64,000 nucleotides of DNA, taken from assembly GCA_036785375.1 (NCBI GenBank), contig JAWMAR010001141.1, positions 62,001 through 126,000 of the forward strand. Direction: 5' to 3'. The translations under genes were made by a program, and so were the position numbers. This stretch comes from Leucoraja ocellata. Its lineage: Eukaryota. Under the pieces are notes generated by a model. It was not told where the DNA came from, searched no databases, and saw nothing but the letters and a program-made list of their open reading frames with translations. Positions 7,213 through 59,900 of this stretch are shown here, one piece after another. Numbering within the stretch: position 1 is the first letter of the stretch; each line of letters starts with the position of its first letter.

Positions 7213-7299
7213 CGTGGTCACAGAGAGAGAGAGGTCCATGTTTGCTGATGGAGTGGTCTCCAATTCGTGCTGTTCACGACTTGCTCTTGTTTGATTTCA

Positions 7300-15596: not shown

Positions 15597-18500
15597 CTTT
15601 GGAGTCAAGTGAGAAACATAATTACTTAAAGATAGTGTCAGAAGGTGGACAGAAACGCTGGAGAAACTCAGCGGGTCAGGCAGCATCTATGGAGCGAAGG
15701 AATAGGTGACGTTTCGGGTCGAGACCCTTCTTCAGACTGATGTCAGGGGAGTGGTTGGTACAGAGATAAAATGTAGTCGGAGACAGTAAAACTGGTGGGA
15801 GAATTTGGAAGGGGGAAGGGATGGAGAGAGAGGGAAAGCAAGGGCTGCTTGAACATTGACGTCACCAACCCGAAACATCACCTATTCCTTCGCTCCATGG
15901 ATGCTGCCTCACCTGCTGAGTTTCTCCAGCATTATTTTCTACATTCGATTTTTCCAGCATCTGCCGTTCTATGGAGGGCAATTCACTTAGAAATCCGCCC
16001 GTCTTTGTGGTGTGGGAGGAAACTGGAGCATTCTGACAAAACCCAGGTGGTCAAACTCTGCAAACCTGCAAACTCCACGCAGACAGCACCGGTGGTCAGA
16101 ATCGAACCCAGACAAGGCAGTGGAGAAGGCCAAGGATGGGCACTCGATCATTTAGGTGCCATGTTAGGAGCGGGCAAGTGATCGATATGTCATGTGATGT
16201 GGGACCCTGCAGGGATGACTTCCAGTAAGGTTGTTTTATTTCCCTGGGGCTACAACATCTGTGGCATTGCCTTACCTTGAAACTGTCTGCTGGATTTTGC
16301 TGACTCATAATTCTCTGTCCATTTGAGCCTGAAAAATATAATGATAATGAATTCTTATATGGACTTCATTGAAGTCAAACACGCGAAGGATAATGTTGCT
16401 TTTTAACCATTGATGACATACTTGGTGCACTTTCATGAAACTTATGGGCCTGTCCCACTTAGGCAACTTTTTCGGCGACTGCGGGAGACTATGCAGTCGC
16501 CACATGTTTGCGGGTGGTTGCCGGGGGGTTGCCGGGGAGTCGCCTTCATGGTCGTGAGGAGTTCCCGCATTCTGGAAACTAGTCGCGGCCTCATTTTGGT
16601 CGCCGTGAATTTTACTTCACGATTTCTAGGGCCACCTCCTTGAGTACTCTGGGATGCAGACCATCAGGCTCTGGGGATTTATCTGCCTTCAATCCCAACA
16701 GTTTACCTAACACCATTTTCTGACTAGTGTGGATTCCCTTCAGTTCCTCCCTCCCACTAGATCCTCGGTCCCCAGTATTTCCGGGAGATTGTTAGTGTCT
16801 TCCTTAGTGAAGACAGAACCAAAGTACTCGTTTAACTGTTCTGTCATTCCCTTGTTTCCCATTATAAATCCACCTGCCTCTGACTGTAAGGGACCTACAT
16901 TATTCTTCACTAATCTTTTCCTTTTTACATACCTAAATAAACTTTTAAGTCAGTTTTTATATTCCCCGCAAGCTTTCTTTCATGCTCTTATCACCCCCCC
17001 CCCCCCCCCCACTCTTAATTAACCCCTTTGTCTTCCTCTGTTGAGTTCTAAATTTCTCCCAGTCCTCTGGTTTGCCACTTTTTCTGGCCAATGTATATGC
17101 GGCTTCCTTGGGTTTAACACTATCCTTGACTTCCCTCGTCAGCCACATTTGAGCTGCCTTCCCAGTTTTATTTATTCGCCAGACAGGGATGAACAATTTC
17201 TGGAGTTCATCCTTACGGTCTTTAAATCTTTGCCATTGCATCTCCACTGTCAACCCTTTAAATATAGTTTGCCAGTCTATCCTAGCCTCTTCCCCTCAAA
17301 CCTTCAAAGTCTCCTTTAATGAATAGTACCCTAGTCTCTGAATTAACCGTGTCACCCTCCATCCTAATGCAGGATTCCACTATATTATGGTCACTGTTGC
17401 TCAAGGGACCTTGCGCAACAAGATTGCTAAACCTTCCTCATTACACAATACCCAGTCTAAGAGACACTGCCCGATAGTCGGTTCCTCTACATATTGGTAT
17501 AAAAACCCATCCCGTATACATTCCAGGAAATCCTCCTTCTCAGTGTTGTTACCAATTTGGCTGGCCCAATGCATGAGCAGCACAGGTAAGTGGGACTAGC
17601 GTAGGGGAGCACCTTGGGCGCCAGTAAGGACGAGTTGGGCCAAAGGTCCTGTCTCTCTGGTATAAACCCATGCGCTCACAGGGAGAACGTACAAACTCCA
17701 TACAGACAGCACCCATAGTCAGGATCGAACCCGTGTTTCAGGCGTTGTAAGGCAGCAACTCTCCCACTTGGCCACTGTGCCGCCTTGAAATGTCACCTGT
17801 CCATGTCCTACACAGATGCTGCCTGACCCGCTGAGTTACTCCAGCACTTGGTGTATTTCCCTGCTGTTACACAGTAGGTGAATGGTCTGAGTTTGTGAAA
17901 GGCACCTCAGAGAGAAGGGCCAAATCGTTGTTAATCAACAAGAGTGGCCCCTTGATATTTACGTACATTCATCGCAACTTACCAGTTTTCTTTCTCTGCC
18001 TCATTTTTACACATAGGATAATGCCAGCGATGAACAGAAGAAAGACAATTGTCAAGGCGATCGGTAGAACAACCTTCCATGAAAATGTGACCCTGCAAAA
18101 TACAAGGAAAAACAATGACGAGCTCATGGTAATAGGACTGATTCCCTCCCCAGTAACGAACCATGCGTTTCGATCCGGAAAGTAAAAATGTGGATCTAGA
18201 CTTGAATGCAGTGCAGGTTAAATTCTAGAACATTATGAATAATTCTATTGGTATTTAAGGAACTATAAAGTAGTTTAGAGTTTAGAGATATGACATGAGA
18301 GCAGGCCCTTTGGCCCATTGAGACCATGCTGACCATTTAGGGACGGCACGGTGGCGCAGTGCCTCACAGCGCAGGAGCCCCGGGTTCGGTCCTGACTACC
18401 AGTGCTGTCTGTACAGAGTTTGTACGTTCTCCCTGTGATCGCAAGTTTTTTCCAGGTTCTCCGGTTTCCTCCCACATTCCAAAGACGTGCGGGTTTGTAG

Positions 18501-21500
18501 GTTAATTGACTTCTGTAAATTGTTCCTAATGTGTAGAACAGAACTGGTGTATGGGGTGATCGCTGCTCAGAGCGGACTCGGTGGGCCAAAGGGCCCATTT
18601 CCACGCTGTATCTTTAAACTGAGCTGAACTGAACTTAACTAATTTGTTCTCAGGTGAGGCTGAGTTGACTCTTCGAGTTACTGACCTGTTTCCATCTGAT
18701 GAACCAGAAGCCTCATTGGAACTTGCTGCCTTGGTGGTTGGTGTACCTTGAGGCATGGTGGTCAGAGTGGTTGTGGTGGAAGCCTTTGTGATTATTGTTG
18801 TAGAGGTGGTGCTGACCATGTCTGGGCTGCTTGTTGGAGATCCTTGTGGAGATAAAGTGAATGAAGTTTTTGAACATTAAATGTGTGAAATCACGTTCTG
18901 TGCCACTTTAGTGATGTGTGGGAGATGCCTCAGTTGGCAGCGCTCTTGCTCTGTGTGGGGAGATTCCTGGGTTCAAATCCCAATCCAGACATTTGGGCAA
19001 AGATCCTTCTGAGGCCACCATAGATGGACCAAGCCCCTTGATCTAGACCGGAGGCTCACCCATTAAGATGCCACCAGATTGTCGCAAGCATTCAGAGACT
19101 TCTTTCATGCCCTCCATAGTCCCACAGGCTGTGTTATCTGCCTGCTGCTAGAGTTAGGCACATGTCTTCTACATTGGAGAAGAACTTGGGAGCGGGAGGA
19201 TCCATGGACTATTTTCATTACGCGGACTGAATTCAAAATAATGCAATTTGGTTGGAGGTATCTACCTGAAACATTAACTCTCGTTCTCTCTCCACAGAAG
19301 CTGCCCGACCCGTTGAGTATCTCAACTTGTACAGTTTGTGTGACTCAGTGTAAAGTCTATATCACTCATCTCTTGAGGATTCTTAGTTCATTAGTTCATA
19401 AGTGATAGGGGCAGATTGAGGCCACTTGGCCCATTGAGTCTATTCCGCCTTTCAATCACGGCTGATCTATCTCTCCCTCTCAACCCCATTCTCCTGCCTT
19501 CTCCCCATATTGCTTGACACCCGTACGAATGGAGAACCTGTCAATCTCCACCTGAAAATACCCAATGACTTGGCCCTCATTGGAAACATGGTAAAAGATT
19601 TTCCCTGTACCTCAGTACAGACGACAACAATAAACTGAGCTCATGAATCACCAAAGTTTGTGAGACACAAGGAATTGCAGGTGCTGGAATTTTAAGCAAA
19701 ACACAAAGTGCTGGAGAAACTCTGCAGGTCAGGCAGCATCCGTTGTAGAAATGAACTGACACTCTTTAGTGTTGGGTCCCTTCTTCAGATGTTGTGGGTG
19801 TGACAGTGACGGGCAGGGGGAGAGGGTGAGGGGGCACCAGAGGTTCTGGCTGTTCCCCTGCTCCAGTGAGGGGCGGCAGAGGTTCTAGACCCGGAGCGAT
19901 CGTCTTTGGGGAAATGAGCCGCCAGCAGCAGAACCGCCGGTCCCCATTGATGAGCCCCCCCCCCCCCCCCCCACACACACTGCTCCTGGGACAGTGGGCT
20001 CTTGGTGTGGCCCCATGAGCCGGGACCCCAGTAAATGTGCTCCCCCCTCCTTCACCCCGACCCCCGGGGATGTGGCACCGAGTCACCGTCAGCACCGAGG
20101 CCGGGAATTCCCAGGCTGGAATGTTCACATCTGGGAGAGTGAGGAGAGATCGTCAACGTACCTTCAGAAACCGTCAATGAGATGGAGGTCCTTTCATTGC
20201 TTGAAAATATTCCCTTTACAATCACACACCAGTAGCGTCCTTCATCACTCTTCTCCAGGTTGTCGATGGTTACTGAAACTATCAGTTGTGTTTTGTTATC
20301 ACTCATCGATGTTCTCCTATATTGTGGTGAGTCATCAGTAGAAACCACGGTATCAGATATTATGTAATAGTAACCTTTCTTCCATAGCTTCTTGTTGTCA
20401 GTGTATTCCTGACCATACTGACATTCCACTGTGACCGACTGCCCCAACTCTCCCCTCACCTCCTTGGGTCCAGTTATTCCCCTTAACCCTGTGGACACAT
20501 TAATGATGAAAGATCACTCACACTGCAGCAACACAAGCTGAGGTTTAACAATAAAAAACATGTCATTTGTGCTGTTCAGACAGGTTCATGGTTTCGCATA
20601 GATCATGTGTAGCAAGGAACTGCAGGTGCTGGTTTACACCAAAGATAGACACAAAGTGCTGGAGTAACTCGGCGGATCAGGCAGAATCTCTGGAGAAAAT
20701 GGATAGGTGTCCTTTTTGGGTCGGGACCATTCTTGATCTCCCGGTTGCCAACCCTGTCCATGTCCCTTCCCATTCCCACACTGACCTTTCTGTCCTGGGC
20801 CTCCTCCATTGCCAGAGTGAGGCCACATGCAAATTGGAGGAACCGCACCTCATATTGGGCTCAGGTAGTTTACAACCCAACGGTTTGAACGTTGGTTCTC
20901 TAATTTTAAGTATCTTCTACTAACCTGCCCCCTCCCCCATTGACTCCTATCTCCACCCGGGTTTCCCACCACCTGCCCCAGTGAGGGGCGGCAGAGGTTC
21001 TGGTCCCGGAGCGATCGTCTTCGTGGAAATGAGCCGTCAGCAACAGAACCGCCGGTAGATGGGATCTTCCGTGGGGCTGGTGTCTGACAGCCCCCCCCCC
21101 CCCCCCCCCCCCCCCATACTGCTCCAGCGACAGTGAGCTCTTGGTGTGGCCCCACGGGCCGGGACCCCAGTAAGTGAGTTATCCACCCAACCCCCTTACC
21201 GCGACCCCCCCGGGGATGTGGCACCGAGTCACCGTCAGGACCGAGGCCGGGAATTCACAGGCTGGAATTTTCACATCTGGGAGAGTGAGGAGAGATCGTC
21301 AACGTACCTTCAGAAACCGTCAATGAGATGGAGGCCGATTCAATGAATGAATGTTTTCCCTTTACTATCACACACCAGTAGAGTCCTTCATCACTCTTCT
21401 CCAGGTTGTCGATGGTGACTGAAACTATCGGTTGTTCTTTGTCATCAGTCATCGATGTTCTCCCTTGTTGTGGGTGATCAGTAGAAACCACGGTAGAAGA

Positions 21501-24298
21501 TGGAAGGAAATAATCACCTTTACTCCATAGCTTGTCGTTGTCTTTGTATTTCCGATCATACTGACATTCCACAGTGACCGACTGCCCCAACTGTCCCCTC
21601 ACCTCCACGGCTTCAGTTATTCCCCTTGATCCTGTTGGCACATTAATGATGAAAGATCACTCACACTGCAGCAACACAAGCTGAGGTTTAACAATAAAAA
21701 ACATGTCATTTGTGCTGTTCAGACAGGTTCATGGTTTCGCATAGATCATGTGTAGCAAGGAACTGCAGGTGCTGGTTTACACCAAAGATAGACACAAAGT
21801 GCTGGAGTAACTCAGCGGGACGGGCAGCATCTCTGGAGAAACCGACGGGTGATGTTTCCTCGCCCATTCCTTCTCTCCAGAGATGCTGCCCGTCCCGCTG
21901 AGTTACTCCAGCATTTTGTGTCTCTCTTCTTCTGCATAGATCCTGTTGCACTTTAATGCTTTTCCCGCTGGTGTTAATTCCCATTTCACCGGGGATTGTT
22001 CCCCAAGTTCCAGTGAAAGCAGAACTGAGTTCCTTCTTGAACACTTTGTCTACTCCACTGCGATATCTATCTTCCAGCATCTGCAGTTCCTTCTTGAACA
22101 CTGCTTCTGAATCTACCTGGCGCCCAGATCCTCCTTCCCTGTGGGCGTGGCTTGACCGGAGTGGTGGTCATGTGACAGGAAGCCAACCTGTCACTCACTC
22201 TGACCCACCCTGTGTTCAATCTCACTACAACCCACTTCCCCATTGAACTAGTAGAAACAAGGAACTGCAGATGCTGGTTAATGTACAAAAGGACACAAAG
22301 TGCCGGAGTAACACAACGGGACAGGAACTATCTCTGGAGAAAGAGGAACTCTCTGGGTGAAAAGATATTTCCTCATCTGAGTCCTCAATGGCCTACCCGT
22401 TATTGAGGTCACAACCTTAAACTGGACAGGAACTATCTCTGGAGAAAGTGGATAGATGATGATTCATAGAAACATATAAACATAGAAAATAGGCGCAGGA
22501 GGAGATGATTCGGCCCTTCGAGCCGGCACTGCCCAGTTCTGCTTGCTCCCGTTATCCCATGATTCCATTAGCCCTAAGAGCTAAATCTAACTCTCTCTTG
22601 AATACATCCAGTGAATTGGCCTCCACTGCCCTCTGTGGCAGAGAATTCTACAGATTCACAACTCTGGGTGAAAAGGTTTCTACCCCATCTTAACTTAATT
22701 GTGTGTGTTAGTTGTCTGTGCGTTATGTGTGTGTGTGTGTGTGTGGGAGGGAGGGAGGGAAGTAGAGAAAGAAGGGATGGAGCGAATGGGACCCTCTGGA
22801 TACATGGATAGGACAGATTTGAAAGGACTTGGACCAAACATGGACAGGTGGGACTAGTGTTGCTGAGACATGTTGGCCGGTGTGGGCAAGAAGGGCCGAA
22901 GGGCCTGTTTCCACACTGTATCACTCTATGACTCTAACACATGTGAAACTCTGCAGATTCAGGAGCTGGGGTGGAGACACATCATCGCATCAGTCCAGGT
23001 CGGCTCACAAGCCACAAGACAAATGCCTTGAAGGAGAACTCAGAGGCTTTGGAAAGCACAGTGTGTAGAACAGCTCGAGCAGCAGAGTCTGTTGTAAGGC
23101 AGCTGGTTTTTCTCAGAAGGGAGAGATTACCACAACTTCTCCAAATGCTAAATTGGACAGTCACTCTGGTGCTTCCTCATTTGAGATGACGCCTGTTCCC
23201 AATGGCTGGCTTTCACAGGTTTTTTCTTTGAATGTGCTAAGGTTTAGGTTCAACATTTCCCATTGCAGTGCGTGGAGGGAGTGCCGTGTGTCTTTGATAG
23301 ACACTAAAATGCTGGAGTAACGCAGCGGGTCAGGGGGCATCTCTGGAGAGAAGGAATGGGTGACGTTTCGGGTCGAGACCTTTCTTCAGACCCACAGTCA
23401 GGGAGGGAGGAAGTCAAGAGATATGCAAGGGGTAAAGCATTTAGCTGATCTGCTGTCAAGTCACTGAGCACACAGCATCACAACAGTCATTAGTGCAGGG
23501 AAGAACAAGTCTGCAAGCATTTTATCTTTAGCAGCTCGTAGCCCAGTTGTCTGCTCTGTGGCTCAAAATAATTCAAGGTGCTGGCAAATAATTCTGAAGA
23601 ACAGATCACAAGTTCATTAGTACTAGGAGCAGAATTAGGCCATTTGGCCCATCAAGTCTACTCTCCCCCATTCAATTATGGCTGATCTATCTTTCCCTCT
23701 CAACTAAATCCTCCTGCCTTTTCCCCAGGTCTCCTGACACCAGTACTGATCAAGAATCTATCCCATCTCGGCCTTAGAAATACCTATTGATGGCCTCCGC
23801 AGTCTGTGGCAATGAATTTCCACAGTTTCTGTCTCACAAAATTCCTCCTCATCTCCTTCCTAAAGCAACGCCCTTTAATTCTGAAGCTGCGACCTCTGGT
23901 CCTAGAGTCTCCCACTAGTGTAAACATCCTCACCCCATCCACTCTATCCAGGCCTTTCACTATTCAGTAAGTTTCAATGAGGTCCACAAGGCAAGGCAAG
24001 CTGTAGATAGTTATCTCCCGACTTGGGCTGCAACACAACACGACAACAACCACTGATGGAAGTCTCTACAGGAACTAACGAGTGTTGAGCAATTCATCAT
24101 CAGCTCCCCACACAGTACAGAGAGGTCTGTGGTTACAAATAATTCAAGGCGTTGGTAAATAATTCCTCAGAACAGAGCATTTTGTAAAACAACGATTTAC
24201 CTGGTGTGAGACCAACAGCGACAAGAACCAACAGAGCGACCTGTTCCCCTGGATCTGGGCCATCTCTGGTGGGTGAATTCTCCCTGTCCCACCGCCAT
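15441..24298 (-). CDS. Gene 2: inhibitory CD300/pIgR-like (MDIR-type) receptor, about 407 aa if the leader is intact. Exons 24201-24298 (leader, +1 frameshift), 21308-21631 (Va), 20162-20488 (Vb), 18686-18842 (mucin stalk), 17983-18092 (TM), 16276-16328, 15441-15596 (ITIM tail)
   Basis: GT-AG introns with consistent phases from Va to the stop (1,1,2,1,0). TM VVLPIALTIVFLLFIAGIILCV then KMRQRKK. Tail contains VIYTTV, TYMNL and VVYATI. The leader is 98 nt against 97 nt in the gene 3 paralog. Confidence 0.8.
15705..15740 (-). ncRNA. Minimal hammerhead ribozyme motif in a Penelope-derived repeat (also 1297-1332 and 56649-56685 on +)
   Basis: CUGAAGA-A-GGGU(CUCG)ACCC-GAAAC-GUC core with a palindromic minimal stem III. 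Confidence 0.55.
16618..17575 (-). mobile_element. CR1 LINE endonuclease/linker fragment in a gene 2 intron
   Basis: EDFLECIRDGFLYQYVEEPT...LDWVLCNE; PEDWEKFR. Confidence 0.8.
17983..18092 (-). CDS. Gene 2 transmembrane exon (uncharged)
   Basis: VTFSWKVVLPIALTIVFLLFIAGIILCVKMRQRKKT; acceptor ttttgcag, donor gtaagt, phase 2-1. Confidence 0.88.
18686..18842 (-). CDS. Gene 2 Ser/Thr-rich mucin-like stalk exon
   Basis: GSPTSSPDMVSTTSTTIITKASTTTTLTTMPQGTPTTKAASSNEASGSSDGNR; 157 nt, acceptor ctttatctccacaag, donor gtcagt. Confidence 0.85.
20162..20488 (-). CDS. Gene 2 V-set Ig exon Vb
   Basis: GQSVTVECQY...W...SDEGRYWC...ISLTVSE; 327 nt, phase 1-1, ccacag/gtacgt. Confidence 0.92.
21308..21631 (-). 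CDS. Gene 2 V-set Ig exon Va
   Basis: GQSVTVECQYDRKY...W...SDEGLYWC...ISLTVSE; 324 nt, phase 1-1. Confidence 0.92.
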
Positions 24299-32934: not shown

Positions 32935-34227
32935 CTGAAAAGCTAAACGATGATTATTGGGCGTCATTTCCGTCAGAATAACAATATTGATATAACGATT
33001 ACCCTTCATTTTTATCTTATTCTTCTAACGCGTGTCCACAGTTCATTACGTAATCATTTAACCGTTTTTACATCCCCATTGTTCAATGGTTCAATGGTAC
33101 TTTATTGTCTCATGCACATGCGTACAGTGACATTTCTTTTGTATAGAATTCAGTAAAAATCTTACTTGATATAAGCACAGCTGAAGCTAAGAACAAGAGT
33201 ATTAATAGCAGATTATATGATGCAGTACACAAGAGTTGCCACATTACTGGCAGTATCTTATATTCTTAAACATCAAACTGGGCTTAAAGGCCATTTTATT
33301 TGGGTTTAAAGGCCCGTTGTCATGGAGACGGCACTGGGTGGGAGTTGCAGGGGTCGGCCTGGCCTGGCGATGTTGTCGGTGCCTCCACCACCGCTCCGTG
33401 CCGCTGCAGGCCGTGTCCGATCCGCGCGCTCGTCCCCGACTCTGTGGGGCCTCCAGCGGCACCCGATCCACTGGCTGCTGCAGGGCCTCCAGCAGCCCAC
33501 TCGCACTCCGCCCACACCTCGACCCACCAACGCACCCTTTTCCCCTGCCTCCCACGGCCGTCTCCATGCGAGGTGAGGCCTCACCCAGCCAGCTCACCGG
33601 CGCTGTTCCTCTCCTTCCTCCACCACTGCCGACCCCATCTCCAAGGTCTTGGCTTTTTTTTCCTTGAATAACAATTAAAACACAGTTTATAATCTCCACC
33701 ATCAAATTTTACCCGAGGAAATGACCCAGGGCGGCACAGTGGCGCAGCGGTAGAGTTGCTGCCTTACAGCGCCAGAGACCCGGGTTTGATCATGACTACG
33801 GGTGCTGTCTGTACGGAGTTTGTATGTTCTGCCTGTGACAGCGTGGGTTTTATCTGGGTGCTCCGGTTTCTTACCACAATCCAAAGACGTGTAGTTTTGT
33901 AGGTTAATTGGCCTCTGTATAATTGTAAATTGTCCCTCGTGTGTAGGATAGTGCGAGTGTACGGGGTGATCATTGGTCGGCGCGGACTTGATTGGCTGTA
34001 TACCCTTTAATAATATCTGACAATGTGCACTTTAACCACGTGTGATTTTTTCAATTACAAATCTCAAATTGTGGAATACAGAGGCAAATAAATAAATGAA
34101 GGGTCTTTGTCCCAAACATTATGGAGGGCGCTGTATGTCCACACTTTATCTCTACAAATCGAAAGTAAATTCCCATCATTTCCAGTTGAATTTAATGTGA
34201 ACATCAGAGTGAAGAGATTGCAAACTT

Positions 34228-34342
34228 TCACCTTTTCAAAGTTGTCACACAGCTGATGGAAACCGGGAAGAGAAGCAGAATTCCAAAGAGTACCCAGCGT
34301 AACACACCCCAAACACGGCAAACGATGTTCAGCATGGTGTCC
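34228..34342 (-). CDS. Gene 3 transmembrane exon with charged Arg (activating type)
   Basis: Acceptor ttccttggatttccag, phase 2 matching the stalk donor. The correct frame (VWGVLRWVLFGILLLFPVSI) is not in the ORF track. Confidence 0.82.
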
Positions 34343-35391
34343 CTGGAAATCCAAGGAAATATTATTACTTCCACACAGAGTTACCACAGATCAACGCTGG
34401 CAATTTTCTTTCATCATATTGCCCCTGGAATCATTCAGTGTGATCCAAGGTTTTGGCGTGGACATTGGTGAGATGTTGATATCGCAACATGCACCCATTC
34501 CTTGGAGGTGTTCCATGACTACATACATTAACAACTTAGATGTTCATTTTGATGGTCAGACATAGAGCACGAAAACATGTCCTTTGACCCAATTTCCCCC
34601 ACGCCGACCAAGATGTCCTTATCTACACTAGTCCCATCTGCCGGCCTTAGATGTTAATGTTGGAAGTATGATTTACGAGTTTACAGATTACACCAACATT
34701 GTCTCATTTTGGATAGTACGATAATCATAGACCACAGAGGGATAAGAAGCAACTGGTATGTTGGGCAGAGCAATGCCAGCAGGTATTGAACTGTGATAAG
34801 TGTGAAGTTATTTGTTTTTGGCATCATGTAAGGGTAGACATTCACAATGGTAGGGCCACTGGGTGTACTAAGGACAGAGGGACTTTAGTCAGGGCCAAGG
34901 AGTATTTATCAATGGACTGGAATGTGATCAGCCACGCTTTCTCAAAGTACTGGGACTTTGAGTCACTGACCTGTGTCGAGGCGATGAACCAGGAGTCCCT
35001 GGTGGTCGATGCTTCTGGAGGCAGAGTGGGTGTGGTGGTTCCTGAGGTGGTGGTGACCATATTTTAATCCAGTTTAGTTTAATTTTGAGATATAGCGCGG
35101 AAACAGGCCCGACGGCCCATGGAGTCCACACCGACCATCGATCCTCGCACACTAACACTAGGCTACACACACACTAGGGTCAATTGACACATACGCCAAG
35201 CCAATCTACTTACATACCTGTATGTCTTTAGAGTGTTGGAGGAAATCAAAGATCTCAGAGAAAACCCATGCGGTCGTGGGGATAACGTACAAACCCCGTA
35301 CAGGCAGCACCTGTAGTCGGGATCGAACCTGGGTCTCTGGCGCTACAAGCGTTGTAAGGCAGCAACTCTACCGCTGCGCCACCGTGCAACC

Positions 35392-35422
<31 letters not shown>

Positions 35423-38400
35423 ACCAAAGTGGTGAGGATATCTGGGTGATATGTTTGAGACCCTTGTGAAGATAAAGTGAATGAAGTCTTTGAACATTAA
35501 ATGTTTATAATCACGTTCTGTGTCACTTTAGTGACGTGTGGGAGATGCTTCAGTTCGGAACGATCTTGCTCTGTGTGGGGAGATTCTTGATTCGAATCCC
35601 AAACCTGAGATTTGAGCAAGGATCCTTCCTAAACCACCATAGATGGACCAAGCCCCTTGATCTAGACATGAGGCTCGCCCATTGAGATGTCAGCTCAGCG
35701 GTAGAGTTGCTGCCTCACAGCACAGTAGACGCGGGGTCGATCCTGATACCGGTGCTGTCAGTGCAGAGTCTGTACGTTCTCCATGTGATCGCAAGAGTTT
35801 ACTCTGGGTTCTCCAGTTTCCTCCCACATTCCAAAGACGTGCGGGTTTGTAGTAAGTTGCCCCTAGTGTGTAGAACAGAACTGGTGTATGGGGTGATCGC
35901 TGCTCAGAGCGGACTCGGTGGGCCAAAGGGCCCATTTCCATGCTGTATCTTTAAACTGAGCTGAATTGAACTGAACTAATTGGTTCTCAGGTGAGGCTGA
36001 GTTGGCTCTTCGAGTTACTAACCTGTTTGTAGGTGTTGAACCAGGAGACTCTGTGGAACTTGCTGCCTTGGTGGTTGGTGCATCTTGAGGCATGGTGGTC
36101 AGAATGGTTGTGGTGGAAGCCTTTGTGCTTATTGTTGCAGAGGTGGTGCTGACCATGTCTGGGTGGCTTGTTGGAGATCCTTGTGGAGATAAAGGGAATG
36201 ACGTTTTTGAACATTAAATGTCTGAAAGTACGTTCTGTGCCACTTTAGTGATGTGTGGGAGATGCCTCAGTCGGGAGCGCTCTTGCTCCGTGTGGGGAGA
36301 TTCCTGGGTTCAAATCCCAATCCAGAGATTTGAGCAAAGATCCTTCTGAGGCCACCATAGATGGACCAAGCCTCTTGATCTAGACCGGAGACTCACCCAT
36401 TAAGATGCCACCAGATGGTCACAAGCATTCAGAGACTTCTTTCATGCCCTTCAGAGTCCCACAGGCTGTGTTATCTGCCTGCTGCTAGAGTTAGGCACAT
36501 GTCTTCTACACTGGAGAAGAACTTGGGAGCGGGAGGATCCATGGACTATTTTCATTACGCGGACTGAATTGGAAATAATGCAATTTGGTTGGAGGTATCA
36601 CCTGAAACATTAACTCTCGTTCTCTCTCCACAGAAGCTGCCCGACCCGTTGAGTATCTCATCTTGTAGAGTTTGTGTGACTCAGTGTAAAGTCTATATCA
36701 CTCATCTCTTGAGGATTCTTAGTTCATTAGTTCATAAATGATAGGGGCAGATTGAGGCCATTTGGCCCATTGAGTCTATTCCACCTTTCAATCACGGCTG
36801 ATCTATCTCTCCCTCTCAACCCCATTCTCCTGCCTTCTCCCCATATCGCTTGACACCCGTACTAATTGAGAACCTGTCAATCTCCACCTGAAAATACCCA
36901 ATGACTTGGCCCTCATTGGAAACATGGTAAAAGCTTTTCCCTGTACCTCAGTACAGACGACAACAATAAACTGAGCTCATGAATCACCAAAGTTTGTGAG
37001 ACACAAGGAATTGCAGGTGCTGGAATTTTAAGCAAAACACAAAGTGCTGGAGTAACTCAGCAGGTCAGGCAGCATCCGTTGTAGAAATGAACTGACAATG
37101 TTTAGTGTTGGGTCCCTTCTTCAGATGTTGTGTGTGTGGTGGGTGTGACAGTGACGGGCAGGGGGAGAGGGTGAGGGGGCACCAGAGGTTCTGGCTGTTC
37201 CCCTGCTCCAGTGAGGGGCGGCAGAGGTTCTGGACCCGGAGCGATCGTCTTTGGGGAAATGAGCCGCCAGCAGTAGAACCGCCGGTCCCCATTGATGCCC
37301 CCCCCCCCCCACACACACACACACACACTGCTCCTGGGACAGTGGGCTCTTGGTGTGGCCCCATGGGCCGGGACCCCAGTAAATGTGCTCCCCCCTCCTT
37401 CACCCCGAACCCCCGGGGATGTGGCACCGAGTCACCGTCAGGACCGAGGCCGGGAATTCCCAGGCTGGAATGTTCACATCTGGGAGAGTGAGGAGAGATC
37501 GTCAACGTACCTTCAGAAACCGTCAATAAGATGGAGGTATTTTCATTGCTTGAAAATATTCCCTTTACAATCACACACCAGTAGCGTCCTTCATCACTCT
37601 TCTCCAGGTTGCCGATGGTGACTGAAACTATCCGATGTGTTTTGTTATCAGTCATCGATGTTCTCCCTCGTCGTGGGTGATCAGTAGAAACCACGGTAGA
37701 AGAAAACAGGTAATAATCACCTTTACTCCATAGCTTGTCGTTGTCTCTGTATTCCTGACCATACGGACATTCCACAGTGACCGACTGCCCCAACTCTCCC
37801 CTCACCTCCTTGGGTCCAGTTATTCCCCTTGACCCTGTGGGCACATTAATGATGAAAGATCACTCACACTGCAGTAACACAGGGGGCGGCAGAAGTTCTG
37901 GTCCCGGAGCGATCGTCTTCGAGGAAATGAGCCGTCAGCAACAGAACCGCCGGTAGATGGGACCTTCCGTGGGGCAGGTGTCTGACAGCCCCCCCCCCCC
38001 CCCCCCCCCCATATTGCTCCTGGGACAGTGAGCTCTTGGTGTGGCCCCACGGGCCGGGACCCCAGTAAGTGAGTTATCCACCCAACCCCCTTACCGCGAC
38101 CCCCCGGGTATGTGGCACCGAGTCACCGTCAGGACCGAGGCCGGGAATTCCCAGGCTGGAATTTTCACATCTGGGAGAGTGAGGAGAGATCGGCAACTTA
38201 CCTTCAGAAACCGTCAATGAGATGGAGGCCGAATCGTTTCCCTTTACAATCACACACCAGTAGAGTCCTTCATCACTCTTCTCCAGGTTGTCGATGGTGA
38301 CTAAAACTATCCGTTGTGTTTTGTCATCAGTCATCGATGTTCTCCCTCGTCGTTGGTCATCAGTAGAAACCACAATATAAGATTTCTGGTAATAATCACC

Positions 38401-41400
38401 TTTACTCCACAGCTTCCTGTTGTCTCTGTATTGCTGACCATACTGACATTCCACTGTGACCGACTGCCCCAACTCTCCCCTCACCTCCACGGGTCCAGTT
38501 ATTCCCCTTGACCCTGTTGGCACATTAATGATGAAAGATCACTCACACTGCAGCAACACAAGCTGAGGTTTAACAATAAAAAACATGTAATTTCTGCTGC
38601 TCAGACAGGTTCATGGTTTCGCATAGATCATGTGTAGCAAGGAACTGCAGGTGCTGGTTTACACCAAAGATAGACACAAAGAGCCGGAGTAACTCAGCGG
38701 GACAGGCAGCATCTCTGGAGAAACCGACAGGTGATGTTTCCTCGCCCATTTCCTTCTCTCCAGAGATGCTGCCCGTCCCGCTGAGTTACTGCAGGATTTT
38801 GTGTCTCTCTTCTTCTGCATAGATCCTGTTGCACTTTAATGCTTTTCCCGCTGGTGTTAATTCCCATTTCACCGGGATTATTCCCCAAATTCCAGTGAAA
38901 GCAGAACTGAGTTCCTTCTTGAACACTTTGTCTACTCCACTGCGATATCTATCTTCCAGCATCTGCAGATCCTTCTTGAACACTGCTTCTGAATCTACCT
39001 GGCACCCAGATCCTCCTTCCCTGTGGGCGTGGCTTGACCTGAGTGGTGGTCATGTGACAGGAAGCCAACCTGTCACTCACTTGACCCACCCTGTGTTCAA
39101 TCTCACTACAACCCACTTCCCCATTGAACTAGTAGAAACAAGGAACTGCAGATGCTGTTAATGTACAAAGGACACAAGTTGCCGGAGTAACACAACGGGA
39201 CAGGAACTATCTCTGGAGAAAGAGGAACTCTCTGGGTGAAAAGATATTTCCTCATCTGAGTCCACAATGGCCTTCCCGTTATTGAGGTCACAACCTTAAA
39301 CTGGACAGGAACTATCTCTGGAGAAAGTGGATAGGTGACGATTCATAGAACATATAAACATAGAAAATAGGCGCAGGAGGGAGACGATTCGGCCCTTCGA
39401 GCCGGCACTGCCCAGTTCTGCTTGCTCCCGTGATCCCATGATTCCATTAGCCCTAGAGCTAAATCTAACTCTCTCTTGAATACATCCAGTGAATTGGCCT
39501 CCACTGCCCTCTGTGGCAGAGAATTCTACAGATTCACAACTCTCTGGGTGAAAAGGTTTCTACCCCATCTTAACTTAGTTGTGTGTGTTAGTTGTCTGTG
39601 CATCGTGTGTGTGTGTGGGAGGGAGGGAGGGAAGTAGAGAAAGAAGGGATGGAGCGAATGAGAGAAAGGAAAAGAGCGGAAGGAGGGAGGGAGAGGGATG
39701 CCAGGGTCGGGGCAGATGGGTGTGAGGTGAGGCCGATGTTTGTATACGATGCCCCAGCCCCCGGCCCAGCCCTCCGTGTAATTGTTCACCGCCTCTCCCC
39801 GGGAGAGAGAGGGTGGAGCCGGGGCTGTGTGCGTGAAGCACGGCGACTGGAGGGGCAGGAGCGCTGCGGAGTGAACGACCCACCTCCCCCTCTCCCCCTT
39901 CTCCATTCCCCTCACACCCCCTCCCTGTCTACCCCTTTCTTCCCCCTCCACCCCTCTACTCTCTCTCCACCCGGGGTAGATCTACCCGTCGAGAGTAGGT
40001 TACACTGGCGCGGGGCCTCCTTACTCGCGGGGTACAATTGGGAGCAATCGATCCAATCGGCTTAAGGCCGGCCCTGGGTATTCAGTATTCAGTATTTACT
40101 TTAATGTCATTTTAACTTACATACACAGAAGAAACTAAAAATTGTTTCCAATCAGTTCCCGTAAGTGCAGTTAATAAAAACAGAATAAATACATATAGAT
40201 TTAAAATTAAAATTAACATATCTAAAATAGGCCTAAAAATTGAAATAAAAACAGGCATTCAGACCGAACAGTGGCTTTGCTTGGACAGGTGCCTAGCTGT
40301 CAAAAGTATAGGCGAGGTTAGATGTGTTGGTGTATGATGTATGGGGAGGGGACACAGTCCGTTAACCAGTCTTATTGCTGTGGGAAGAAGCTGTGAGCAT
40401 CCTGCTGGTTTTACATAGAAACATAGAAATTAGGTGCAGGAGTAGGCCATTCGGCCCTTCGAGCCTGCACCGCCATTCAATATGATCATGGCTGATCATC
40501 CAACTCAATATCCCGTACCTGCCTTCTCTCCATACCCCCTGATCCCCTTAGCCACAAGGGCCACATCTAACTCCCTCTTAAATATAGCCAATGAACTGGC
40601 CTCAACTACCCTCTGTGGCAGAGAGTTCCAGAGATTCACCACTCTCTGAGTGAAAAAAGTTCTTCTCATCCTGGTTTTAAAGGATTTCCCCTTTATCCTT
40701 AAGCTGTGACCCCTTGTCCTGGACTTCCCCAACATCGGGTACAATCTTCCTGCATCTAGCCTGTCCAACCCCTTAAGAATTTTGTAAGTTTCTATAAGAT
40801 CCCCTCTCAATCTTCTAAATTCTAGAGAGTATAAACCAAGTCGATCCAGTCTTTCTTCATAAGACAGTTTTGCAGCTGATGCTCCCCCTGTACCTCTTAC
40901 CAGGTGGCAGAATGGAGAAGATGTGGTGTGATGGATGATAGGGGTCCTTAATAATGGAGATGGCTCTGCTGATGTTACGCTTCTGATAGATCTCCAACAG
41001 GAAAGGGAGTGGAGCACCAATGATCCTACTGGCTGTCTTCACTATCCTGTTAAGTTGCTTTTGTTCATAAGCCTTGCAGCTCCCAAACCAGGAAGTGATG
41101 CCGTGGGTCAGTATATTCTCGATGGTGCCCCTGTAGAAGGACCTTAGGTGAACAGTAGGGAGACCTGCTTTACTTAGTCTCCGGAGAGGGTGGGACCCTC
41201 TGGATACATGGATAGGACAGATTTGAAGGGACTTGGACCAAACATGGACAGGTGGGACTAGTGTTGCTGAGACATGTTGGGCGGTGTGGGCAAGTTGGGC
41301 CGAAGGGCCTGTTTCCACACTGTATCACTCTATGACTCTAACACATGTGAAACTCTGCAGATTCAGGAGCTAGGGTGGAGACACATCATCACAACAGTCC

Positions 41401-42723
41401 AGGTCAGCTCACAAGCCACAAGACAAATGCCTTGAAGGAGAACTCAGAGGCTGGGGAAAGCAAAGTGTGCAGATCAGCTCGAGCAGCAGAGTCTGTTGTA
41501 AGGCAGCTGGTTTTTCTTAGAAGGGAGAGATTACCACAACTTCTCCAAATGCTAAATTGGACAGTCACTCTGGTGCTTCCTCATTTGAGATGACGCCCGT
41601 TCCTAATGGCTGGCTTTCACAGGTTTTTTCTTTGAATGTGCTAAGGTTTATGTTCAACATTTCCCATTGCAGTGCGTGGAGGGAGTGCCGTGTGTCTTTG
41701 ATAGACACTAAATGCTGGAGTAACGCAGCGGGTCAGGGGGCATCTCTGGATAGAAGGAATGGGTGACGTTTCGGGTCGAGACCTTTCTTCAGACCAACAG
41801 TCAGAGAGGGAGGAAGTCAAGAGAATATGCAAGGGGTAAAGCATTTAGCTGATCTGCTGTCAAGTCACTGAGCACACAGCATCACAACAGTCATTAGTGC
41901 AGGGAAGAACAAGTCTGCAAGCATTTTATCTTTAGCAGTTCGTAGCCCAGTTGTCTGCTCTGTGGCTCAAAATAATTCAAGGTGCTGGCAAATAATTCTG
42001 AAGAACAGATCATAAGTTCATTAGTACTAGGAGCAGAATTAGGCCATTTGGCCCATCAAGTCTACTCTCCCCCATTCAATTATGGCTGATCTATCTTTCC
42101 CTCTCAACTAAATCCTCCTGCCTTTTCCCCAGGTCTCCTGACACCAGTACTGATCAAGAATCTATCCATCTCAGCCTTAGAAATACCTATTGATGGCCTC
42201 CGCAGTCTGTGGCAATGAATTCCACAGTTTCTGTCTCACAAAATTCCTCCTCATCTCCTTCCTAAAGCAACGCCCTTTAATTCTGAAGCTGCGACCTCTG
42301 GTCCTAGAGTCTCCCACTAGTGTAAACATCTTCACCCCATCCACTCTATCCAGGCCTTTCACTATTCAGTAAGTTTCAATGAGGTCCACAAGGCAAGGCA
42401 AGCTGTAGATAGTTATCTCCCTTCTCCACAGGGAGCTAGCTGTGTGCGACTTGGCTGCACACAACACGACAACAACCGCTGATGGAAGTCTCTACAGGAA
42501 CTAACGAGTGTTGAGCAATTCATCATCAGCTCCCCACACAGTACAGAGAGGTCTGTGGTTACAAATAATTCAAGGCGTTGGTAAATAATTCTAAAGAACA
42601 GAGCATTTTGTAAAACAACGATTTACCTGGTGTGAGACCAACAGCGACAAGAACCAACAGAGCGACTGTTCCCCTGGATCTGGGCCGTCTCTGGTGGGTG
42701 AATTCTCCCTGTCCCACCGCCAT
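34228..42723 (-). CDS. Gene 3: activating-type CD300/pIgR-like receptor, about 334 aa. Exons 42627-42723 (leader), 38202-38513 (Va), 37511-37834 (Vb), 36023-36179 (stalk), 34228-34342 (Arg-TM + TGA); possible extra tail exon 32832-32934
   Basis: Leader MAVGQGEFTHQRRPRSRGTVALLVLVAVGLTPG|gtaaat is phase 1. V and stalk exons are open with matching phases. TM exon reads DTMLNIVCRVWGVLRWVLFGILLLFPVSISCVTTLKR* (intramembrane Arg, no ITIM). Confidence 0.8.
34971..35462 (-). pseudogene. Degenerate second stalk exon interrupted by an HE1 SINE (paralog 54309-54793)
   Basis: Same acceptor context (cactttatcttcacaag) and gtcagt donor as the functional stalk, Thr-rich coding remnant, SINE in the middle and shifted end phase. 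Confidence 0.7.
37511..37834 (-). CDS. Gene 3 V-set Ig exon Vb
   Basis: ORF 37065..37844; 324 nt, phase 1-1, canonical Ig Cys/Trp/YWC. Confidence 0.92.
38202..38513 (-). CDS. Gene 3 V-set Ig exon Va (12-nt in-frame deletion in FG loop)
   Basis: ORF 38074..38523; 312 nt, donor gtaagt. Confidence 0.92.
40078..41190 (-). mobile_element. Rex1/Babar-clade LINE 3' fragment (paralog about 62465-63010; missing from unit 1)
   Basis: LRRL.KAGLP...FYRGTIESILT.GITSWFGSC...HPSH.IFSILP.GKRYRS...SFFPQAIRL; (actgaat)n tail. Confidence 0.85.
40413..40866 (-). mobile_element. Young HER1/CR1 insertion nested in the Rex element
   Basis: TSD gtttt; empty site at about 62685; (tttctatg)n tail. Confidence 0.9.
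42627..42723 (-). CDS. Gene 3 signal-peptide exon
   Basis: acATGG start, basic n-region then VALLVLVAVGLTPG, phase-1 donor CAG|gtaaat; GAGGAAGAGG Ets-like box about 55 nt upstream. Confidence 0.65.
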
Positions 42724-53565: not shown

Positions 53566-53680
53566 TCACCTTTTCAAAGTTGTCACACAGCTGATGGAAA
53601 CCGGGAAGAGAAGCAGAATTCCAAAGAGTACCCAGCGTAACACACCCCAAACACGGCAAACGATGTTCAGCATGGTGTCC
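53566..53680 (-). CDS. Gene 4 Arg-containing transmembrane exon
   Basis: Same translation as 34228-34342. Confidence 0.82.
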
Positions 53681-56600
53681 CTGGAAATCCAAGGAAATAT
53701 TATTACTTCCACACAGAGTTACCACAGATCAACGCTGGCAATTTTCTTTCATCATGTTGCACACGGAATCATTCAGTGTGATTCAAGGTTGTGGCTTAGA
53801 CATTGGTGAGATGTTGATATCGCAACATGCACCCATTCCTTGGAGGTGTTCCACGACTACATACATTAACAACTTAGATGTTCATTTTGATGGTCAGACA
53901 TAGAGCACGAAAACATGTCCTTTGACCCAATTTCCCCCACGCCGACCAAGATGGCCTTATCTACACTAGTCCCATCTGCCGGCCTTAGATGTTAATGTTG
54001 GAAGTATGATTTACGAGTTTACAGATTACACCAACATTGTCTCATTTTGGATAGTACGATAATCATAGACCACAGAGGGATAAGAAGCAACTGGTATGTT
54101 GGGCAGAGCAATGCCAGCAGGTATTGAACCATGATAAGTGTGACGTTATTTGTTTTTGGCATCATGTAAGGGTAGACATTCATAATGGTAGGGCCACTGG
54201 GTGTACTAAGGACAGAGGGACTTTAGTCAGGGCCAAGGAGTATTTATCAATGGACTGGAATGTGATCAGCCACGCTTTCTCAAAGTACTGGGACTTTGAG
54301 TCACTGACCTGTGTCGAGGCGATGAACCAGGAGTCCCTGGTGGTCGATGCTTCCGGAGGCAGAGTGGGTGTGGTGGTTCCTGAGGTGGTGGTGACCATAC
54401 TTTAATCCAGTTTAGTTTAGTTTTGAGATATAGCGCGGAAACAGGCCTGACGGCCCATGGAGTCCACACTGACCAGCGATCCTCGCACACTAACACTAGG
54501 CTACACACACTAGGGGCAATTGACACATACGCCAAGCCAATCTACTTACATACTTGTATGTCTTTAGAGTGTTGGTGGAAATCAAAGATCTCAGAGAAAA
54601 CCCATGCGGTCATGGGGATAACGTACAAACCCCGTACAGGCAGCACCTGTAGTCGGGATCGAACCTGGGTCTCCAGCGCTACAAGCATTGTAAGGCAGCA
54701 ACTCTACCGCTGCGCCACCATGCAACCCCCCACACACACACACACACACACGCACCAAAGTGGTGAGGATATCTGGGTGATATGTTTGAGACCCTTGTGA
54801 AGATAAAGTGAATGAAGTCTTTGAACATTAAATGTTTATAATCACGTTCTGTGTCACTTTAGTGACGTGTGGGAGATGCTTCAGTTCGGAACGATCTTGC
54901 TCTGTGTGGGGAGATTCTTGATTCGAATCCCAAACCTGAGATTTGAGCAAGGATCCTTCCTAAACCACCATAGATGGACCAAGCCCCTTGATCTAGACAT
55001 GAGGCTCGCCCATTGAGATGTCAGCTCAGCGGTAGAGTTGCTGCCTCACAGCACAGTAGACGCGGGGTCGATCCTGATACCGGTGCTGTCAGTGCAGAGT
55101 CTGTACGTTCTCCATGTGATCGCAAGAGTTTACTCTGGGTTCTCCAGTTTCCTCCCACATTCCAAAGACGTGCGGGTTTGTAGTAAGTTGCCCCTAGTGT
55201 GTAGAACAGAACTGGTGTATGGGGTGATCGCTGCTCAGAGCGGACTCGGTGGGCCAAAGGGCCCATTTCCATGCTGTATCTTTAAACTGAGCTGAATTGA
55301 ACTGAACTAATTGGTTCTCAGGTGAGGCTGAGTTGGCTCTTCGAGTTACTAACCTGTTTGTAGGTGTTGAACCAGGAGACTCTGTGGAACTTGCTGCCTT
55401 GGTGGTTGGTGCATCTTGAGGCATGGTGGTCAGAATGGTTGTGGTGGAAGCCTTTGTGCTTATTGTTGCAGAGGTGGTGCTGACCATGTCTGGGTGGCTT
55501 GTTGGAGATCCTTGTGGAGATAAAGGGAATGACGTTTTTGAACATTAAATGTCTGAAAGTACGTTCTGTGCCACTTTAGTGATGTGTGGGAGATGCCTCA
55601 GTCGGGAGCGCTCTTGCTCCGTGTGGGGAGATTCCTGGGTTCAAATCCCAATCCAGAGATTTGAGCAAAGATCCTTCTGAGGCCACCATAGATGGACCAA
55701 GCCTCTTGATCTAGACCGGAGACTCACCCATTAAGATGCCACCAGATGGTCACAAGCATTCAGAGACTTCTTTCATGCCCTTCAGAGTCCCACAGGCTGT
55801 GTTATCTGCCTGCTGCTAGAGTTAGGCACATCTTTTCTACATTGGAGAAGAACTTGGGAGCGGGAGGATCCATGGACTATTTTCATCACGCGGACTGAAT
55901 TGGAAATAATGCAATTTGGTTGGAGGTATTTACCTGAAACATTAACTCTCATTCTCTCTCCACAGAAGCTGCCCGACCCGTTGAGTATCTCATCTTGTAC
56001 AGTTTGTGTGGCTCAGTGTAAAGTCTATATCACTCATCTCTTGAGGATTCTTAGTTCATTAGTTCATAAGTGATAGGGGCAGATTGAGGCCATTTGGCCC
56101 ATTGAGTCTATTCCACCTTTCAATCATGGCTGATCTATCTCTCCCTCTCAACCCCATTCTCCTGCCTTCTCCCCATATCGCTTGACACCCGTACTAATGG
56201 AGAACCTGTCAATCTCCACCTGAAAATACCCAATGACTTGGCCCTCATTGGAAACATGGTAAAAGCTTTTCCCTGTACCTCAGTACAGACCACAACAATA
56301 AACTGAGCTCATCAATCACCAAAGTTTGTGAGACACAAGGAATTGCAGGTGCTGGAATCTTGAGCAAAACACAAAGTGCTGGAGTAACTCAGCAGGTCAG
56401 GCAGCATCCGTGGAAGGAATGAACTGACAATGTTTAAGGTTGGGTCCCTTCTTCACCGGAGGAACAGCACCTCATATTCCGTTTGGGGAGTCTGCACCCC
56501 GGGGGCATGAACATCGACTTCTCCCAATTCTGTTAGTCCTTGCTGTCTCCTCCCCTTCCTCAGCTCCCCTGCTGTCCCCTCCCACCCTCCAGCCTTCCGG

Positions 56601-56973: not shown

Positions 56974-59900
56974 ACACTGCTCCTGGGACAGTGGGCTCTT
57001 GGTGTGGGCCCATGGGCCGGGACCCCAGTAAATGTGCTCCCCCCTCCTTCACCCCGACCCCCGGGGATGTGGCACCGAGTCACCGTCAGGACCGAGGCCG
57101 GGAATTCCCAGGCTGGAATGTTCACATCTGGGAGAGTGAGGAGAGATCGTCAACGTACCTTCAGAAACCGTCAATGAGATGGAGGTCCTTTTATTGATTG
57201 GAAATATTCCCTTTACAATCAGCACACACCAGTAGTATCCTTCATCACTCTTCTCCAGGTTGTCGATGGTGACTGAAACTATCCGTTGTTTTTTGTCATC
57301 AGTCATCGATGTTCTCCTATATTGTGGGTCATCAGTAGAAACCACGGTAGAAGAATTTGTGTAATAATAACCTTTACTCCATAGCTTGTCGTTGTCTTTG
57401 TATTTCCGATCGTACCGACATTCCACAGTGACCGACTGCCCCACCTCTCCCCTCACCTCCTCGGGTCCAGTTATTCCCCTTGACCCTGTGGGCACATTAA
57501 TGATGAAAGATCACTCACACTGCAGCAACACAAGCTGTGGTTTAACAATAAAAAACATGTCATTTGTGCTGTTCAGACAGGTTCATGGTTTCGCATAGAT
57601 CATGTGTAACAAGGAACTGCAGGTGCTGGTTTACACCAAAGATAGACACAAAGAGCCGGAGTAACTCAGTGGGACAGACAGCATCTCGGGAGAAACCGAC
57701 GGGTGATGTTTCCTCACCCATTTCCTTCTCTCCATAGATGCTGCCCTTCCTGCTGAGTTACTCCAGCATTTTGTGTCTCTCTCCTTTTGCATAGATCCTG
57801 GTGCACTTTAATGCTTTTCCCGCTGGTGTTAATTCCCATTTCACTGGGATTATTGTTGTAGAGGTGGTGGTGACCATGTCTGGGCGGCTTGTTTGAGACC
57901 CTTGTGGAGATAAAGTGAATGACGTTTTTGAACATTAAAAGTCTGAAAGCACGTTCTGTGCCACTTTAGTGATGTGTCGGAGATGCCTCAGTCGGGAGCG
58001 CTCTTGCTCCGTGTTGGGAGATTCCTGGGTTCAAATCCCAATCCAGAGATTTGAGCAAGGATCCTTCTGAGGCCCCCATAGATGGACCAAGCCCCTTGAT
58101 CTAGTCATCTCATGAGGATTCTTCGTTCATACGTTATAGAAACATAGAAAATAGGTGCAAGAGGAGGCCATTCAGCCCTTCGAGCCTGCACCGCCATTCA
58201 CTGTGATCAGGGCTGAACGTCCCCAATCAATAACCCGTGCCTGCCTTCTCCCCATATCCCTTGATTCCACTAGCCCCTGGAGCTCTATCTAACTCTCTCT
58301 TAAATCCATCCAGTGATTTGGCCTCCACTGCCCTCTGTGGCACGGAATTCCACAAATTCACAACTCTCTGGGTGAAAAAGTTTTTTCTCACCGCAGTCTG
58401 AAATGGCCTCCCCTTTATTCTAAGGCTGTGGCCCCTGGTTCTGGACTTGCCCAACATTGGGAACATTTTTCCTTCATCAAGCTTGTCCAGTCCTTTTATA
58501 ATTTTATAAGTTTCTATAAGAAACCCACTCATCCTTCTAAACTCCAGTTTTGAGCCTAGTCTTTTCAATCTTTCCTCATATGACAGTCCCGCCATCCCAG
58601 GGAGCAATCTCGTGAACCTACGCTGCACTGCCTCAATCACAAGGATGTTCTTCCTCAAATTAGACCAAAACTGTACACAATACTCCAGATGTGGTCTTAC
58701 CAGAGCCTGATACAACTGCGGAAGAACCCCTCTACTACTGTACTGAAATCGTCTTGTTATGAAGTTCATGTGATAGGGGCAGAATGCGGCCATTTGGCTT
58801 ATTTATGTCTACTCCGCCATTCAATCATGGCTGATCTATCTCTCCCTCTCAACCCCATTATCTTCCCTTCTCCCCATATCGCTTGACACTCATACTAATC
58901 GAGAACCTGTGAATCTTAAAAATACCCAATGATTTGGCCTTCATTGGAAACATGGTAAAAGCTTTTCCCTGTACCTCAGTACAGACGACAACAATAAACT
59001 GAACTCATGAATCACCAAAGTTTGTGAGACACAAGGAATTGCAGGTGCTGGAATCTTGAGCAAAACACAAAGTGCTGGAGTAACTCAGCAGGTCAGGCAG
59101 CATCTGTGGAAGGAATGAACTGACAATGTTTAGTGTTGGGACCTTTCTACAGATGTTGTGTGTGTGGTGGGTGTGACAGTGACGGGCAGGGGGAGAGGGC
59201 ACCAGAGGTTCTGGCTGTTCCCCTGCCCCAGTGAGGGGCGGCAGGGGTTCTGGACCCGGAGCGATCGTCTTTGGGGAAATGAGCCGCCAGCAGCAGAACC
59301 GCCGGTCCCCATTGATGAGCCCCCCCCCCCCCCCCCCCCCCACACACACACTGCTCCTGGAACAGTGGGCTCTTGGTGTGGCCCCATGGGCCGGGACCCC
59401 AGTAAATGTGCTCCCCCCTCCTTCACACCGACCCACGGGGATGTGGCACCGAGTCACCGTCAGGACCGAGGCCGGGAATTCCCAGGCTGGAATGTTCACA
59501 TCTGGGAGAGTGAGGAGAGATCGTCAACGTACCTTCAGAAACCGTCAATAAGATGGAGGTCCTTTTATTGATTGGAAATATTCCCTTTACAATCAGCACA
59601 CACCAGTAGTATCCTTCATCACTCTTCTTCAGGTTGTCGATGGTGACTGAAACTATCCGTTGTGTTTTGTTATCACTCATCGATGTTCTCCTATATTGTG
59701 GGTCATCAGTAGAAACCACGGTAGAAGAATTTGTGTAATAATAACCTTTACTCCATCGCTTCTTGTTGTCACTGTATTCCTGACCATACTGACATTCCAA
59801 AGTGACCGACTGCCCCAACTCTCCCCTCACCTCCTTAGGTCCAGTTATTCCCCTTGACCCTGTGGACACATTAATGATGAAAGATCACTCACACTGCAGC

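Follow-up and report, generated by a model that had tools for sequence, protein, structure and literature searches.

In the accessible sections of Abi-Rached and Parham 2005 (PMC2213150), activating receptors of the KIR (STK) and Ly49 families are described as products of recombination between an inhibitory ectodomain and an existing activating signalling domain. FCGR2C is presented, in the available text of PMC6563257, as a chimera of inhibitory-type extracellular domains and an activating tail, generated by unequal exchange in a tandem cluster. For two further pairs, the excerpts at hand report that gene conversion keeps the ectodomains alike, repeatedly so for CD300A and CD300C (PMC12447643), and also for SIGLEC11/16 (PMC5701461). 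As homologous exchange leaves no scar, the history of paired receptors is usually read from trees. Skate MDIR is portrayed second-hand, in the accessible part of PMC3031540, as a multigene family with activating and inhibitory members and with V domains resembling those of CD300, TREM and pIgR.

The locus analysed here resembles MDIR, as far as that partial description can be compared, in being a skate family of activating and inhibitory type with similar V domains. With KIR and Ly49, as presented in the accessible text, it would share the joining of an ectodomain to an activating domain, followed by duplication, but the activating tail of these mammalian receptors is described there (PMC2213150) as recent, derived from an inhibitory one and short lived, whereas the Arg-bearing transmembrane (TM) exon of the skate genes is common to rays and sharks, and probably to bowfin and sturgeon, and the junction is marked by a relic exon. 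FCGR2C, in the available account, arose by homologous crossover and has an ITAM-like tail of its own, whereas the skate junction shows little homology and leads to a charged-TM tail. CD300C differs in its TM glutamate and its single V domain, and the available sections of PMC12447643 mention no stranded stalk. At the skate locus, fragments of stranded exons and a clipped SINE mark two junctions, and from them the DNA reveals in which direction and in what order ectodomains were exchanged, and how old the exchanges are relative to one another. The mechanism is already known from KIR/Ly49 and FCGR2C, and the locus reveals neither a new mechanism nor a new function; the new part is the visible relics in cartilaginous fish, to which the mechanism of mammalian KIR, Ly49, FCGR2C and CD300 is extended, and whose scars are testable across skate genomes.

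The window, that is, the whole 64,000-nt stretch of Leucoraja ocellata contig JAWMAR010001141.1 that was analysed, carries on its minus strand a head-to-tail cluster of CD300/pIgR-like genes of the Ig superfamily. The V exons encode V-set domains (Pfam V-set, E 1e-12), and the 16 PDB matches of the V domain at E<=1e-5 all belong to pIgR/secretory component or to CMRF35-like proteins, CD300 being among its closest solved relatives. Among 97 candidate proteins, the closest are 7 matches in the skates Leucoraja erinacea, Amblyraja radiata and Rhinoraja longicauda, and NCBI names the relatives pIgR-like or CMRF35-like. No MDIR sequence was found among the named matches, 17 of 150 unnamed proteins (besides P0003) having been looked up, and a literature search covering mostly open-access papers returned no paper on this locus. 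Rfam yielded two weak matches among 4227 families, each under its gathering score.

Gene 2 (15441..24298, minus strand) is the inhibitory member and comprises a leader exon, two V exons, a stalk exon (18842-18686), a TM exon (18092-17983), a tail exon (16330-16276) and a last exon in which VIYTTV and VVYATI form two ITIM-type motifs; its tail is identical to that of L. erinacea XP_055510917 at 51 of 52 residues. At ~24241, its leader exon has one extra G relative to the gene 3 leader, which shifts the frame and is either an assembly error or a pseudogene allele. On the same strand, gene 1 (2140-7260) encodes a more distantly related receptor that has two V domains and whose TM is uncharged.

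Gene 3, also on the minus strand, has a leader exon (42623..42723), two V-set exons (37511..38513), a working stalk exon of 157 nt (36023..36179), an Arg-bearing TM exon of the W-x-x-x-R-W-x-L-F type (34232..34342) and a short cytoplasmic tail exon without ITIM (33594..33662). The corresponding TM exon of gene 4 lies at 53570..53680 (minus strand); in both genes it is combined with a 22-residue tail devoid of ITIMs. Read from the sequence, the donor of the working stalk and the acceptor of the Arg-TM exon are both in phase 2. The arginine is invariant in all five aligned TMs, and it is from this TM and the short tail that we predict genes 3 and 4 to be activating. Receptors with a charged TM signal through ITAM adaptors, and by analogy the Arg-TM of genes 3 and 4 would do the same. 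The locus combines an ITIM-bearing inhibitory member, a charged-TM member with a short tail and ectodomains that are alike by lineage, as in paired receptors. Compared with its relatives, the window's Arg-TM has a 3-nt insertion at 34324-34327 and is without the first of two adjacent N-terminal arginines, while the conserved arginine before the tryptophan is kept. In an A run at ~33653, the gene 3 tail exon is one base shorter than that of gene 4 and than contigs of two further organisms, C and D.

From the second V exon to the SINE behind the stalk, gene 2 (18360-20535) and gene 3 (35711-37881) are 93.2% identical over 2191 columns. The DNA of the inhibitory and activating TM exons shows no similarity beyond that of shuffled sequences, 117 of 300 of which reach the score. 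The acceptors of these exons (34330-34365 in the activating, 18080-18115 in the inhibitory gene) are alike over ~33 nt, a score reached by 2 of 500 shuffles, which may reflect old homology or splice-site composition. Both pre-TM introns contain a short repeat that scores above 300 of 300 shuffles, but since it has 25 matches in the window, its presence does not point to common descent.

Between the working stalk and the Arg-TM exon, gene 3 harbours a second stalk exon (35462-34971, 492 nt, minus strand), which retains both an intact acceptor and an intact donor. The preliminary description had reported it as SINE-disrupted, frameshifted and adjacent to the Arg-TM exon, and we found it at the same coordinates. 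Its 5' piece with the acceptor (35429..35462) is followed by a G/(GT)n run and a SINE (together 35070..35428, the SINE itself at 35387-35070), and by a 3' piece with an internal frameshift and the GT donor (34971..35062); a possible 13-nt target duplication with two mismatches lies on either side of the insertion. Directly upstream of this relic lies a second copy of the final 230 nt of the pre-stalk intron (35463..35692). Intron copy and stalk start together (35429-35692) are 85.3% identical to gene 2 and 83.4% to the working copy of gene 3, in agreement with the earlier observation of a second, more diverged pre-stalk intron.

Without its insertion, the relic exon amounts to ~113 nt, summed from its pieces, as opposed to 157 nt in the working exon, and is therefore out of frame even then. 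Spliced in whole, it leads to a stop after either upstream donor; its four internal AG sites yield pieces of 71, 44, 41 and 28 nt, none of which is in frame, and no inclusion form examined preserves the reading frame. The mature transcript would be expected to skip the relic. Two contig sets that we guess to be RNA, X17 and X18, cover neither stalk. The X18 pieces contain intron; in X17, one contig of depth 10.4 covers the tail exon, while differences at the same depth occur in the TM exon, a pattern that hints at splicing, with the joint itself not among the matches listed.

The preliminary description named the SINE HE1, a family present in elasmobranchs according to the accessible part of PMC2911107, and the window contains 20 copies of this putative HE1 element of at least 200 nt. 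In genes 2, 3 and 4, one copy occupies a common insertion site behind the working stalk (18343-18633 in gene 2; 35693..35970, plus strand, in gene 3), and it is absent after the relic. Its 5' end is complete in gene 2, whereas genes 3 and 4 lack about the first 13 nt, exactly up to the start of the relic intron, with CAG as the sole sequence common to both parents at the junction (35686..35696). Genes 3 and 4 therefore represent the derived state, and we read the arrangement, on the basis of these alignments, as one old junction at 35692/3. It had previously been suggested that the homology of genes 2 and 3 stops inside the SINE; the match indeed ends in this element, but it does so at the SINE's 5' end, while the interior shows just a step in identity near 35870.

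The explanation we favour, at a probability of about 0.65, is a fusion of an inhibitory-type ectodomain with an existing, predicted activating tail at the clipped-SINE junction, followed by gene conversion. The leader-V-V-stalk part of an inhibitory-type gene, together with its SINE, would have been joined to the end of the activating gene's pre-stalk intron. The stalk of the activating gene itself, broken today, would have been stranded in this way, and a later duplication of this one fusion product would have given rise to genes 3 and 4. The join may have arisen by deletion or by unequal exchange between paralogues arranged head-to-tail, at a break where they had little homology. That a graft took place is read from the state of the SINE: gene 2 has it at full length, gene 3 in clipped form, and it does not follow the relic. 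On these grounds the grafting of an inhibitory cassette onto an activating tail, as first proposed, is still the most economical reading, although the cassette is not a copy of today's gene 2, the two stalks agreeing at only 41 of 53 residues.

The step within the SINE is sharp: between genes 2 and 3, the 3' part is identical at 102 of 104 positions (98%), the 5' part at 131 of 151 (87%; Fisher p=0.001, for a split point picked after viewing the alignment). Such a step would also be produced if the same graft had occurred by crossover between two SINE copies, one behind the inhibitory stalk and one already lying in an intron of the activating gene, 230 nt ahead of its stalk, making the gene 3 SINE a hybrid, as the wording of the preliminary description implies. 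In keeping with this, the 5' half of the gene 2 SINE is just slightly nearer to gene 3 (86.8%) than to another copy in the window (85.0%), and over the first 78 nt it matches gene 3 at 66 of 77 positions, yet is 84.8% like another copy. We nevertheless regard a crossover between SINEs as unlikely. Genes 2 and 3 share nine non-consensus states that are spread over the entire 5' half, including four within its first 55 nt; of 90 control pairs, not one reaches this number (the highest share 8, 7 and 7), and the best of 12 other copies holds four of the nine. In a tree of the 5' halves, genes 2 and 3 are sisters (support 88/82, unstarred), and it would be a coincidence under such a crossover that the SINE 5' half and the relic intron have diverged to the same extent. 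These controls were drawn from the window alone, where 12 of 17 other copies were kept and five were dropped as at least 92% identical to a kept copy. With moderate confidence, we consider the two 5' halves to descend from one insertion, and the step near 35870 most likely marks the end of later gene-conversion tracts. Following the fusion, conversion would have homogenised the ectodomains of genes 2, 3 and 4 up to about the middle of the SINE, leaving its 5' half and the relic to drift outside the tracts.

All working copies group to the exclusion of the relic, which has intron differences of 12-14% as opposed to 4-6%. Its intron differs from gene 2 at 24 of 203 positions and from the gene 3 working copy at 28 of 203, whereas gene 2 and the gene 3 working copy differ at 11 of 204; at informative intron sites it sides with gene 2 seven times and with the gene 3 working copy three times, a small split. 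Along their length, the introns of genes 2 and 3 show 1-7 differences per 100 nt. Outside CpG sites, the SINE 5' half differs from gene 2 at 16 of 131 positions and the relic intron at 21 of 186, compared with 8 of 187 in the working introns. As both sides of the junction are ~12% away from gene 2, the divergence of the relic is no proof that an older stalk was stranded; from the equal divergence, the stalk that was stranded probably differed little from the incoming one when the event took place, and it is diverged now because it lies outside the conversion zone. The view of the relic as a fossil holds insofar as it is an outgroup to the working copies, while its greater age does not follow.

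Equal divergence on the two sides of the junction is also predicted by a local tandem duplication of intron end and stalk within the activating gene, the upstream copy of which was used and homogenised with the inhibitory gene while the downstream copy decayed; relic and SINE 5' half would be equally far from gene 2 if the stalks were identical at the event. By eye, moreover, the 3' end of the relic has some states in common with the working stalk of gene 3 that are not found in gene 2. The usual test for such a duplication, greater likeness of the relic to its neighbouring stalk, which the preliminary description had regarded as pointing to this origin, comes out the other way (28/203 to the neighbour, 24/203 to gene 2), but it is weak, since later conversion among working copies would mimic this result and so erase the signal. 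What makes local duplication improbable is the SINE: either its clean loss after the relic or its transfer to gene 2 in another graft would be required, and gene 2 keeps the 5' end that gene 3 lacks. In addition, past the relic donor, likeness to the working flank extends over ~13-17 nt and does not exceed that of shuffled sequences, 20 and 31 of 300 of which attain the score.

An assembly artefact as the source of the relic, or of the duplication of gene 3 into gene 4, is very improbable. The two one-base frameshifts in the window, in the gene 2 leader and the gene 3 tail, are possibly errors, and none among the contigs listed bridges 35692. However, the relic's divergence from every working copy is difficult to reconcile with misassembly, genes 3 and 4 differ at 33 of 1621 columns from the TM intron to the SINE and have unlike V exons, and contigs of organism C carry an ungapped 3' piece of the relic that, among the contigs listed, differs at 2 and 6 positions over 105 nt. 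Contigs of organism D cover this piece as well, the contigs compared being from 4 of 24 runs. Since the 3' piece is present there, the relic predates the split from organisms C and D; the read depth over the relic intron in these organisms may stem from working-type introns.

The gene 3 block is present again at 51029-56455 with 97.5% identity, which bears out the proposed duplication of the putative chimera: relic stalk, junction, SINE and working stalk recur in gene 4 at 54309..55510 (minus strand). Gene 4 contains a second relic (57848..58104, minus strand), in which an intron end is combined with ~53 nt from the start of a stalk exon of the inhibitory type. This truncated exon (57900-57848) resembles the start of the L. 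erinacea inhibitory stalk, and the relic joins the intron before the third V exon through the 7-nt microhomology AATAATC, common to both parents. Judged by its sequence, this is a second fusion between paralogues at short microhomology, indicating that the locus does produce fusions of this kind.

In L. erinacea (XP_055510911) and Amblyraja radiata (XP_032898103 and XP_032898104), a working-type stalk is joined directly to the Arg-TM, in RefSeq models that are predictions. A relative in which the Arg-TM is still attached to an intact old stalk had been anticipated; none is found among the 167 proteins compared. Amblyraja P0006, which has the best blastx score to the relic, was considered as such an intact old stalk and rejected, as it shares an ancestral Leu and a shorter T-rich run alone. 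The gene 3 stalk is identical to the L. erinacea activating stalk (XP_055510911) at 52 of 53 residues, and the Rhinoraja inhibitory stalk is closer to gene 3 (39/53) than to gene 2 (32/53), so that the literal donor was not gene 2 as it exists today. In Amblyraja, one activating gene has a stalk of inhibitory type, agreeing at 48 of 53 residues with the L. erinacea inhibitory stalk and at 46 of 53 with that of gene 2, which fits continuing exchange.

A profile built from five Arg-TMs gave 12 matches among 8000 scored candidates, four of which were inputs; new matches came from Hypanus, Narcine, Scyliorhinus, Mustelus and, weakly (E 0.18), bowfin. The bowfin protein has ten consecutive residues in common with the window's TM, and the motif occurs in two sturgeon proteins. 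A search with Arg-TM and tail of P0006 matched the two Amblyraja proteins alone. From these matches, the Arg-TM exon is common to rays and sharks and probably to bowfin and sturgeon; the lineages of sharks and bony fish split more than 400 million years ago. An exon so much older than skates means that the event refitted an activating tail rather than creating one, and the notion of a newly created matched partner is overstated accordingly. In a tree of 34 V domains, grouping follows lineage and not tail type (the cutting pattern missed some domains, among them every domain of Carcharodon P0015 and one of the three of P0003), and activating and inhibitory models of Hemitrygon have an identical stalk, indicating that the matching of ectodomains is recurrent. 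In a merged Hypanus model, the two stalks are one residue apart. Together, this suggests that the activating tail of the family is old and stable. Tentatively, and with somewhat less than even confidence, we propose that the locus preserves datable relics of at least two successive grafts, an old one at ~12% divergence and a second one at the 7-nt microhomology of gene 4, on an Arg-TM that extends from sharks to bowfin, and that such tails are long-lived and serially refitted by end-joining with inhibitory neighbours, unlike the short-lived activating KIR and Ly49 receptors.

Gene 4 itself looks like the orthologue of L. erinacea XP_055510911: both have three V domains, of which, by reading, the first are one residue apart and the second identical. 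The second half of its third V domain is near-identical to that of its second (57160-57477 and 59534-59851), unlike in the L. erinacea orthologue, which is likely due to recent conversion between domains. The intron copy at its second relic has undergone a ~320 nt deletion and a LINE-like insertion (58136-58763). Two RefSeq models, P0002 (XP_078276461, Rhinoraja) and P0162 (XP_059805784, Hypanus), apparently fuse adjacent inhibitory and activating genes. An origin of the extra piece in P0002 from the relic was considered and rejected, since it matches the intron behind V1, for which reason this model probably merges two genes. From these apparently merged models, the gene order is head-to-tail in Rhinoraja and Hypanus as well.
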